Shown: one piece after another, positions 2,016-3,086 of the stretch | Numbering within the stretch: position 1 is the first letter of the stretch | How the letters are laid out: each line of letters begins with the position of its first letter | Virus record (IMG/VR): IMGVR_UViG_2534682139_000012 | Strand: one strand, 5' to 3' | Length of the DNA: 28,428 nt | Source: a virus | Taxonomy: Duplodnaviria > Heunggongvirae > Uroviricota > Caudoviricetes | The notes under the pieces: model-generated | What the model saw: only the letters and a program-made list of their open reading frames with translations | Databases searched by the model: none | What the model was told of the DNA's origin: nothing | Translations under genes and position numbers: made by a program

Positions 2016-2666
2016 TTACAAATTAAAAAACGCCCTAGAAATGACACCGCCTACCAAAACCCCTACGCAGATAAAGAATATTATTTCTTTTGGATAAAGT
2101 CGGATTAATTCTGAAGCACGAAGTCGGACTTCTGGTAAGGTCGAACTCTCTGTGTGGCTTGATGCCGATTGTTGCTCTAACCACGACAATGCAGACTGTA
2201 ACTGAGAACGAGTAAGATCGTTTAAACGTCCTGTACCGAAATTGATATGGCAATACCGCAGAAGTTTTTGTCGAAGTCCACAGTCTTCACTGTTACGTAG
2301 TAATAAACTTACAAGAGCCTTACAGGCATCATGATCTTTACATCGCTCAAGCATTGCATGCAGAAAACTCTCCGCTGTTTTATATTGATTTACTGTCATA
2401 TCATCAATACCAGCTACACCAATCTCCGCATGTACTTTTTGCCAAATAATAAACGCTTCAGTATTGCTAGCTTCTGCAATAGCAGCAACCAAGCTATTTA
2501 GCTCCTTACGCTGAGCCTTAAGCAAAGGGCGATCGTCATCATCATTATTCGAAGGGATTGCGATATTGACAGTATGAGAACCATCATATCGCTCTATCTG
2601 AATATTCTTTTCGTGAAAATCACGCCCAGCAACGCGATTGTTTGAACCGTTTGAGTTGACGGCCAT
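2016..2666 (-). CDS. C-terminally membrane-anchored protein of unknown function; its N-terminus shares a motif with the C-terminus of the upstream HTH regulator
   Basis: 216-aa ORF; N-terminus MAVNSNGSNNRVAGRDFHE; C-terminal hydrophobic helix IIFFICVGVLVGGVISRAFF; AT-rich; 15 bp downstream of the repressor-like gene on the same strand. Confidence 0.6.
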   Translation of the reverse strand: MAVNSNGSNNRVAGRDFHEKNIQIERYDGSHTVNIAIPSNNDDDDRPLLKAQRKELNSLVAAIAEASNTEAFIIWQKVHAEIGVAGIDDMTVNQYKTAESFLHAMLERCKDHDACKALVSLLLRNSEDCGLRQKLLRYCHINFGTGRLNDLTRSQLQSALSWLEQQSASSHTESSTLPEVRLRASELIRLYPKEIIFFICVGVLVGGVISRAFFNL

Positions 2667-2681
2667 GTCACCTCCCTACTA

Positions 2682-3086
2682 TCACCTACCCTTAGTTTCG
2701 TTATAGTCACGACCAGCGATACGGTTATTACCACCAGAAATATTTAACTCACGTCCTGATGGCTGAGTTTCCTTTTCACTGATCGCACCTTTTAAAGCCC
2801 CAATCACCGCGTTTTTCACATCTAACGAAGCTGCTCGAAAGCGAGTAATCAACTCCTGCTCATCATCGTTATAAGTTTCAGGTGAGTGAATTCCCAACAC
2901 AACATACTGAACATCAAGGCCAAAACGAGACAGCGCTGCCAAATACGCAGCATCAGGAAAGCTATCTCCTTTCTCATATCTAAGCTGAGTTAGCTTTTTG
3001 ACTCCACCAATGTCGCTCATGGCAACTTGACTAAGTCCCAATCTTTCCCTTTCCTCACGCAACCGCTGACCAATATCATTTTTCAT
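2682..3086 (-). CDS. HTH-XRE family transcriptional regulator, likely the prophage immunity repressor (C/cI analogue); start assigned to the internal ATG
   Basis: MKNDIGQRLREERERLGLSQVAMSDIGGVKKLTQLRYEKGDSFPDAAYLAALSRFGLDVQYVV is a typical XRE helix-turn-helix. It is divergent from the Cox-like operon. The ORF track extends to 3161 via a GTG, but that leaves no room for promoters. The C-terminal tail reads LNISGGNNRIAGRDYNETKGR. Confidence 0.7.
   Translation of the reverse strand: MKNDIGQRLREERERLGLSQVAMSDIGGVKKLTQLRYEKGDSFPDAAYLAALSRFGLDVQYVVLGIHSPETYNDDEQELITRFRAASLDVKNAVIGALKGAISEKETQPSGRELNISGGNNRIAGRDYNETKGR

Follow-up and report, generated by a model that had tools for sequence, protein, structure and literature searches.

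Matched terminal motifs in the predicted repressor and the adjacent membrane protein of a P2-like prophage

Background

The closest described systems to the one reported here are the paired bacterial signalling motifs known as BASS. BASS1-10 occur in Bell/NLR gene pairs (Dyrka et al., bioRxiv 10.1101/2020.01.06.895854), and BASS11 occurs in the Bab/Agp antiphage system of an Escherichia coli prophage, for which amyloid signalling between adjacent gene products has been demonstrated experimentally (bioRxiv 10.1101/2024.11.07.622273). Experimental demonstrations of amyloid signalling also exist for BASS1 and BASS3. The criteria by which genomes have been mined for BASS motifs are a motif at the C-terminus of one product and the N-terminus of the other, encoded by adjacent collinear genes with a short or negative gap. 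We found the same arrangement, with collinear neighbours and a tiny gap, in a stretch of viral DNA of 28,428 nucleotides (nt) from the IMG/VR record IMGVR_UViG_2534682139_000012 (Caudoviricetes), the whole of which is called "the window" below. The upstream gene encodes an XRE-type helix-turn-helix (HTH) protein, predicted to be the repressor of a P2-like prophage, and the downstream gene encodes a membrane protein.

Many temperate-phage repressors lack a RecA-cleavable domain, and the route by which they are switched off is often obscure. The motif shared by the two proteins of the window is conserved and terminal, it is present almost obligately in both partners, and it co-varies between them at the level of motif classes, independently of the protein bodies that carry it. 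A matched tag of this kind suggests that the lysogeny switch and the cell envelope are connected in a general and modular way, by a link that could serve as a sensor input or provide a membrane effector gated by the repressor. No description of this pairing of a repressor with a membrane protein was found in the searched full-text literature, including searches on Flk_N, on amyloid together with repressor, and on P2-like immunity regions.

The shared motif

A sequence-only reading of the window had noted, between positions 2598 and 2760, a motif common to the C-terminus of the regulator and the N-terminus of the downstream protein. The motif was confirmed at both places and the span does cover both copies, although the 11 identities in 17 residues first counted must be corrected to 10. 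The membrane protein opens MAVNSNGSNNRVAGRDFHEKNIQ, with the matching part at 2598-2660. Within the core, NNR[IV]AGRD[FY], eight of nine residues are identical between the two copies. The local alignment score is 62, against a maximum of 53 in 100,000 composition-preserving shuffles of the tail, and the next best score among the 2,256 combinations of tails and N-termini from window open reading frames (ORFs) of at least 100 amino acids (aa) is 34. Chance similarity is excluded, because neither a shuffle nor any other combination of window ORFs reached 62.

The DNA of the two copies is identical at 30 of 51 positions. Six of the ten identical residues have different codons in the window, which bears out the earlier remark that the DNA differences are mostly synonymous. 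In 76 unique DNA pairs from related loci there are 572 identical residues, of which 355 (62%) have different codons; the mean nucleotide identity of the 30-nt core is 67%. The codon divergence, both in the window and in these pairs, supports the proposal of selection on the peptide and not on the DNA. Recent duplication or gene conversion was rejected because of this share of 62%. A fusion of the two genes, or read-through between them, was rejected as well, since three stop codons stand in a row between them and other loci have the two genes in different frames.

The sequence-only reading had allowed that the motif might be low-complexity sequence common to unrelated proteins. It is not, as a motif profile run against 1.84 billion representative proteins gave only 17 hits at E<=0.001. 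Thirteen of these are N-termini matched from residue 1, in proteins of 207-224 aa where complete and of 35-171 aa otherwise; the other four are unrelated repeat proteins, including animal immunoglobulin (Ig)-repeat proteins, and are chance matches. Two animal Ig-repeat proteins, P0241 and P0256, were hit at the repeated peptide YKCEANNIAGRDFHEIKLNV, a case of chance convergence. This stretch is the F-G beta hairpin of I-set Ig domains, and the analogy hints that NNxAGRDFxE can adopt a strand-turn-strand shape.

The motif is 17-21 residues long in E. coli and reaches about 30 residues in other classes. Its most frequent residues are G (17%), N (11%) and V (10%), followed by S, T, I and Q. In 54 unique related pairs, the gap between the paired genes is mostly between -4 and +34 nt.

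Covariation of the motif in related prophages

Distant loci were gathered through the repressor, through the Flk_N protein (the Flk-like membrane protein described below), and from viral contigs. The sequence-only reading had raised the possibility that the motif recurs in other repressor/cargo pairs, and it was found both in orthologous pairs and in pairs that are not orthologous. Distant homologs of the repressor have different tails, and the N-terminus of the downstream protein shows the same variant wherever its gene is cleanly readable (Table 1). Examples of variants that stand on the two proteins of one locus are NRVAGRDFNE with NRIAGRDYNE, and FNGDISGQFAGNQIIN with FNGTAQGQFSSRDIIN. Summed over 22 representative classes, the score of cognate tails and N-termini is 937, a value reached by none of 20,000 permutations of the partners. 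Three of the classes (L066, L091 and L093) align weakly. In L103 and L104 the downstream gene is not cleanly callable and may be degraded, and seemingly only remnants of a partner are left. Most of the variant loci are Mu-like prophages, in which the pair again occupies the repressor position.

Table 1. Motif variants at the repressor C-terminus and the downstream N-terminus of distant loci
Source	Repressor tail	Downstream N-terminus
Pectobacterium	QIFNGDISGQFAGNQIIN	QEFNGTAQGQFSSRDIIN
Gilliamella	GEGQIAGGNIY	AEQIAGRDIY
Orbaceae	QIIHGNNHGLVVDA	QHICGDNLGNVVNA
P. aeruginosa	QQFNGPVGTVTSGDVVN	QQFHDRVHQVAAGDIKN
Metagenome L022	VVGQVSSQNIYNDI	VVGQVAANNIYNICI
Metagenome L023	VFHGAVSGGVAARDIIN	EFQGNVDGGVAGRDIVN
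Metagenome L024	FHGSVGQSVAGSITN	FHGEVGQAAGGDINN

The bodies to which the motif is attached are diverse on both sides. Upstream, the carriers belong to several XRE subfamilies with unrelated linker helices. Downstream, the majority consist of Flk_N and one transmembrane (TM) helix; the others are zinc-ribbon proteins of 117-143 aa with one or two TM helices, a 150-aa protein with two TM helices, an 81-aa protein, and bitopic proteins of 260-340 aa with a coiled coil and a periplasmic Cys-containing domain (phrog_6521). One motif class can occur on several bodies, one family of bodies can carry many classes, and motif classes cross between P2-like and Mu-like backbones. Because the classes are independent of bodies and backbones, the only thing with which one copy of the motif consistently co-varies is the other copy.

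The longer bitopic partners (L023, L074, L091, L092, L093 and L100, and a fragment in L103) have a conserved periplasmic C-x-[FY]-x-G-x-x-[YF]-x-x-G-x-x-I ... C segment at their end. It follows the coiled coil and a single TM helix, and phrog_6521 is annotated as "membrane protein". The Cys segment looks like a small sensor or ligand-binding domain.

Viral contigs were also scanned with a degenerate DNA pattern for NR[VI]AGRD[FY]xE, which returned at least 120 stretches, 119 of which were analysed. Among the matches listed, the motif lies at most 12 residues from a C-terminus in 73 of these stretches and near an N-terminus in 84, and a single truly internal occurrence is a chance match in a 1,792-aa ORF. 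No C-terminal copy without a matching downstream N-terminus was found among the matches listed. In two apparent N-terminal orphans, L165 and L179, a repressor-type tail ends 600-700 nt upstream and one gene has been inserted between the partners; the tail is fully visible in L179, and only its last six residues (YHEGKK) fall within the stretch read in L165. Because of these insertions, we conclude that the pair tolerates a separation of about 600-700 nt. The inserted gene of L179 encodes a secreted protein with a signal peptide. A repressor homolog that has no tail (P0224, from another P2-like prophage) is followed by genes without the motif.

The repressor and the membrane protein

The HTH gene is divergent from the early operon, lies upstream of int, and heads the leftward lysogenic gene string. 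By this position we assign its product as the lysogeny (immunity, C/CI) repressor, with a predicted immunity function. The same repressor family is found at the repressor position in Mu-like prophages, beside an rve transposase and a MuB-like AAA protein. The protein matches the transcriptional regulator family phrog_8 of PHROG (E 2.5e-14), while its matches to HTH_31, HTH_19 and HTH_3 of Pfam are below threshold and those to RstR and DicA of NCBIfam are below the cut-off. In the AlphaFold2 (AF2) model, built with 72 homologs, residues 1-106 are confidently predicted as the HTH and two helices. The tail (residues 107-134) has a predicted local distance difference test (pLDDT) value of about 40, as expected for disorder. 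No match to a peptidase S24 self-cleavage domain was found in the repressor, in which only the two helices and the tail follow the HTH.

In Enterobacterales homologs, from Escherichia, Klebsiella, Salmonella, Yersinia, Serratia, Pectobacterium and other genera, the tail has the consensus INVSGxGNR[VI]AGRD[YF][NH]ENKK. Two or more Lys or Arg residues occur within the last six positions in 49 of 54 unique tails, and the partner N-termini have no stretch rich in these residues.

The membrane protein carries Flk_N (PF27202) according to precomputed annotation. It matches the NCBIfam Flk family with an E value of 8.6e-16, at 58 bits against a cut-off of 353, and over residues 26-146 of Flk from E. 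coli K-12 the identity is 28% (E 2e-10); phrog_5825 matches it over its full length. AF2 (70 homologs) confidently predicts a helical domain at residues 45-172 and a TM helix at residues 192-215, and gives pLDDT values of 44-52 for the N-terminal residues 1-40. Within this N-terminus S5, G7, N10, R11, G14, D16 and E19 are invariant among 21 homologs, down to 58% identity. The protein is tail-anchored in the inner membrane, and its N-terminus faces the cytoplasm.

A fold search of the membrane protein against the PDB gave nothing significant; its best match, with an E value of about 1, aligns over 62 columns with a chain from the 80alpha Sak/SaPI2 Stl complex. PADLOC, Pfam, NCBIfam and PHROG were also searched with the downstream proteins and gave no informative function and no toxin or defence family, and family scans found no NACHT, NB-ARC or Bell domain in either partner.

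Proposed pairing of the two proteins

We propose, with a probability of roughly 0.55, that direct homotypic pairing of the two tags couples the repressor to its cognate membrane partner. The tail of the repressor and the N-terminus of the membrane protein would recognize each other directly through the motif of 17-30 residues, with the strands of the two copies stacked on each other in the manner of cross-beta or amyloid-type signalling motifs, and the repressor would in this way be physically coupled to the partner encoded beside it. Both the motif-to-motif contact and its beta-type structure are what we infer from the pattern of matching. Like-on-like beta stacking is suggested because the peptide must resemble its partner and not complement it. 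The motif is made of short, beta-prone alternations of hydrophobic and polar residues, punctuated by Gly and Asn. This make-up agrees with such stacking, as do the place of the motif at free termini that AF2 models with low confidence and its encoding in collinear neighbours with a tiny gap. Among the explanations offered in the sequence-only reading, the data speak more for mutual binding or for mimicry than for a host partner, for instance a protease, that both proteins share, because several variants occur within one host genus and each copy co-varies only with the other.

Several observations weigh against the proposal. The motif of E. coli is at the lower end of length for amyloid motifs, and its adjacent Arg and Asp charges would stack unfavorably in a simple in-register amyloid. 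The AF2 monomers contain no beta structure, and residues 8-19 of the membrane protein are modelled as a low-confidence helix. Unlike the known amyloid signalling pairs, the system does not combine an NLR-type sensor with a pore-forming effector, and profile hidden Markov models compared in both directions with BASS samples (one sixth of the published sequence set was used) barely exceed shuffles. Within the AGRD class, 421 identical positions were counted against 415 expected (p = 0.14). The core of this class is invariant, so the matching works at the level of the class, without a fine partner-specific code. Such invariance would also fit a linear motif that is read by a fixed binding pocket.

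If the two proteins do pair, the membrane protein might act on the repressor, sequestering it or co-aggregating with it at the membrane when prompted by a cue from the envelope or from an infection. We advance this direction only tentatively. It is suggested by the missing cleavage domain of the repressors together with the sensor-like appearance of some partners, and by the N-terminal position of the motif on sensors in known systems together with the precedents of RstC and Qtip. Action by the membrane partner would give repressors that SOS cannot cleave an input for derepression. It counts against this direction that it is drawn only from analogy and from the sensor-like features of some of the partners.

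Signalling could also run in the reverse direction. The membrane protein would then be a toxic or phage-excluding effector that self-assembles through its N-terminal motif, and the repressor tail, composed of the recognition motif and a Lys/Arg-rich end, would be a decoy or cap that keeps the effector inactive; loss or titration of the repressor, on induction or by an incoming anti-repressor, would free the effector according to the logic of toxin-antitoxin or abortive-infection systems. The architecture resembles that of a type II toxin-antitoxin pair: the HTH protein comes first and has a probably disordered tail, the protein encoded after it is small, and the two genes are closely spaced or overlap. 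The small membrane proteins vary and are swapped, as effectors often are, and the Lys/Arg-rich ends of the tails have no counterpart in the partners. Genes co-transcribed with prophage repressors typically serve exclusion or defence, as do lambda rexAB and D3112 tip, and a membrane effector triggered by a motif is already known from the Bab/Agp system of an E. coli prophage. However, none of the downstream proteins could be assigned to a known toxin or defence family (PADLOC found none, and Pfam and PHROG were uninformative), and Flk_N is known from a regulatory protein and not from a toxin. The coiled coils and periplasmic Cys domains of some partners resemble sensors more than effectors, and in the known amyloid signalling pairs it is the sensor that has the motif at its N-terminus. 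We consider a capped effector somewhat doubtful, yet it is nearly as good an account as action of the membrane protein on the repressor.

An unlikely alternative is that the two motifs do not meet at all, and that both are degrons or docking sites for one protease, chaperone or adaptor, through which the two proteins are co-regulated or compete. The core, NRxAGRD[FY]xE, is invariant and charged and shows no fine covariation within its class, and both copies lie in low-confidence terminal segments, the usual place of a degron. The Mu repressor is regulated through its C-terminal tail by ClpXP, and the basic C-terminal ends recall the ClpX tag of the MuA type. A host factor cannot explain the matched variation, though, because a single host genus can have several motif classes, at least three of them in Gilliamella and both the AGRD and the GQFAGNQIIN class in Pectobacterium. 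Nor is there a constant phage-encoded third partner, because a given class turns up in both P2-like and Mu-like backbones, attached to various repressor and partner bodies. In addition, no third copy of the motif was found in the 28-kb window.

It is highly improbable that the similarity has no function of its own, being a relic of duplication or fission, a recent gene conversion, a product of read-through or fusion, or chance low complexity. In its favor, the two copies share a frame in this window, with 87 nt between them, and both segments are rich in Gly and Asn. Against it, the shuffles and the window-wide null test exclude chance, and the match persists through at least 22 motif classes and in many families of proteins.

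The prophage and its distribution

An identical locus is annotated by RefSeq in E. coli O103:H2. Its leftward genes are int, DUF2511, the membrane protein (called hypothetical) and the HTH protein. Rightward are genes for a small DNA-binding protein, DUF4761, a gpA-type replication endonuclease and ParM, and further on those for the portal, the terminase, the gpO scaffold and a P2-family capsid protein (gpN). Because of this gene content, we assign the element as a P2-like prophage, inserted near yecA.

The locus is present in 525 of 5,426 complete E. coli genomes (about 10%). Related pairs occur in prophages of Klebsiella, Serratia, Yersinia, Pectobacterium, Gilliamella and Pseudomonas. A tblastn search of phage GenBank records gave five matching records, none of them annotated.

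The features of the locus are collected in Table 2. No terminator-like site was found between the repressor and membrane-protein genes.

Table 2. Coordinates of the repressor/membrane-protein locus and adjoining features in the window
Feature	Position	Strand	Remarks
HTH regulator (repressor)	2682-3086	minus	ORF, 134 aa; RefSeq has the same 405-nt coding sequence (CDS) with the same ATG
C-terminal motif copy, LNISGGNNRIAGRDYNETKGR	2685-2747	minus	Repressor residues 114-134 (last 21)
Repressor tail	2685-2768	minus	Residues 107-134; low AF2 confidence; basic residues at the end
Gene junction	2667-2684	minus	Stops TGA TAG TAG (2676-2684), then Shine-Dalgarno-like GGAGGTGA
Membrane-protein start codon, ATG	2664-2666	minus	Read from the sequence
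N-terminal motif copy, VNSNGSNNRVAGRDFHEKNIQ	2598-2660	minus	Membrane-protein residues 3-23
Membrane-protein N-terminal segment	2547-2666	minus	Residues 1-40; low AF2 confidence
Membrane protein	2016-2666	minus	ORF, 216 aa; C-tail-anchored
Flk_N helical domain of membrane protein	2151-2534	minus	Residues 45-172
C-terminal TM helix of membrane protein	2022-2093	minus	Residues 192-215; AF2 model
Switch region, 76 bp	3087-3162		Between the repressor ATG and the first rightward ORF
Perfect palindrome GGTATC-T7-GATACC, candidate operator	3102-3120		Within the switch region; repeat scan
DUF2511 secreted protein	1639-1986	minus	Pfam DUF2511; leftward gene string

The DUF2511 gene lies between the membrane-protein and integrase genes. 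Two related loci (L006 and L007) have unrelated genes in this slot, and in a third (L009) it is empty. DUF2511 was considered as a third constant partner of the pair and rejected, as it is variable cargo across the related loci, and its position is a cargo slot of the lysogenic operon because unrelated genes, or nothing, are found there in other prophages. On the other side of the switch region, a 68-aa ORF at 3163-3369 on the plus strand starts 76 bp from the repressor ATG and has weak ribbon-helix-helix (CopG) matches. RefSeq does not have this ORF; its annotation shows a 45-aa ORF on the other strand.

An IS3-family transposase gene (orfB-like, 295 aa) at 1-888 on the plus strand adjoins the integrase gene and cuts off its 3' end. 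The remaining integrase ORF, at 770-1633 on the minus strand, has 287 aa, as against the 333 aa of the intact 1002-nt CDS in NZ_CP031908. This copy of the prophage may be unable to excise. The region of the gpA-type endonuclease consists of two overlapping ORFs, both on the plus strand, at 6530-6919 (129 aa) and 6889-9756 (955 aa, GTG start), and RefSeq marks the corresponding gene in NZ_CP031908 as frameshifted. Because the gene is split here and frameshifted there, the prophage may be defective for replication.

Comparison with known systems

The repressor pair can be compared with several systems that share one or more of its features. The lambda CI repressor has an S24 domain that undergoes RecA-stimulated self-cleavage, a feature that the repressor described here does not have. 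Flk, the flagellar regulator of Salmonella and E. coli, resembles the membrane protein in its Flk_N helical domain and C-terminal membrane anchor. Host Flk, however, has 331 aa and a second repeat, its N-terminus is rich in Pro and Gly and has no motif, and its gene is chromosomal, next to pdxB; the prophage protein has 216 aa and a single repeat, and falls below the family cut-off (58 vs 353 bits).

Type II toxin-antitoxin systems are likewise bicistronic, with a DNA-binding HTH protein encoded first, a disordered tail, and tight coupling of the two genes, as is found here. In contrast to these systems, the upstream protein of our pair is the predicted main repressor of the phage and the downstream proteins match no toxin family. 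The neutralizing tail of a type II antitoxin also does not resemble the terminus of its toxin.

RstC, which acts on RstR of CTXphi, and Qtip, which acts on the VP882 repressor, are anti-repressors that work by sequestration or aggregation. They inactivate, without proteolysis, repressors that have no self-cleavage domain, and the HTH of the protein studied here matches the RstR model weakly, below its cut-off. Unlike the partner found here, which is membrane-anchored and co-transcribed, RstC and Qtip are soluble proteins whose expression follows a signal, and no motif common to them and their targets is known.

The fungal HET-S/NWD2 system is an adjacent-gene pair with a shared motif of roughly 21 residues. 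One copy of the motif templates the other, and the effector acts at the membrane. HET-S/NWD2 differs from our pair in being eukaryotic and in joining a STAND sensor to a HeLo pore former. The two-repeat solenoid of HET-s has a weak counterpart here, in that a second GRD[FL] unit occurs at an offset of 15 residues in a minority of the N-termini.

The BASS pairs are the most similar. In them, too, a modular motif rich in Gly, Asn, Gln and beta-branched residues is attached to different bodies, and it occupies segments of about 15-40 residues that are modelled with low confidence in the monomers, as in our pair (pLDDT <55). One partner is directed to the membrane, and carriage by an E. coli prophage is also shared. 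The differences lie in the partners, which are here an XRE repressor and integral membrane proteins, not an NLR/TPR sensor and a Bell/HeLo-type pore former, and in the N-terminal copy of the motif, which is here on the membrane protein. BASS1 and BASS2 have been reported only in Actinobacteria, whereas the pairs described here are from unicellular Gammaproteobacteria.

By eye, BASS1 (..ASGxxRVYQAGRDQHITER) resembles the AGRD class, and BASS2 (..ISGGxxxGPVIQARDIHGGISF) resembles the FHGxVGQxVxGxIxNxxGVxF classes. In pairwise, order-specific comparisons, 53 of 145 motifs scored above the 99th percentile of their own shuffles against BASS1, 58 of 145 against BASS2, and one of 145 against BASS3. 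The resemblance to BASS1 and BASS2 is suggestive. We have not placed the pair in any BASS family, because it lacks the sensor/effector feature and the sequence match is not decisive.

One possible, rather speculative extension is that the lysis-lysogeny repressor is wired to the membrane protein by templating like that of BASS1 and BASS2, so that the repressor is switched off or, instead, arms a membrane effector. Conformational templating at the membrane would then take the place of proteolysis or of a soluble anti-repressor. If this is true, it would be the first case of a transcription factor as a partner in amyloid signalling, and the mechanism would reach unicellular Gammaproteobacteria that are common, about 10% of complete E. 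coli genomes among them. Cross-beta templating would extend amyloid signalling beyond the NLR-type immunity of filamentous bacteria and one E. coli defence system to the control of phage transcription, and the natural motif classes would be a ready set of orthogonal pairing tags. The logic of matched terminal motifs on adjacent gene products is thus known from these systems, while its players, a prophage repressor and integral membrane proteins in Gammaproteobacteria, are new.

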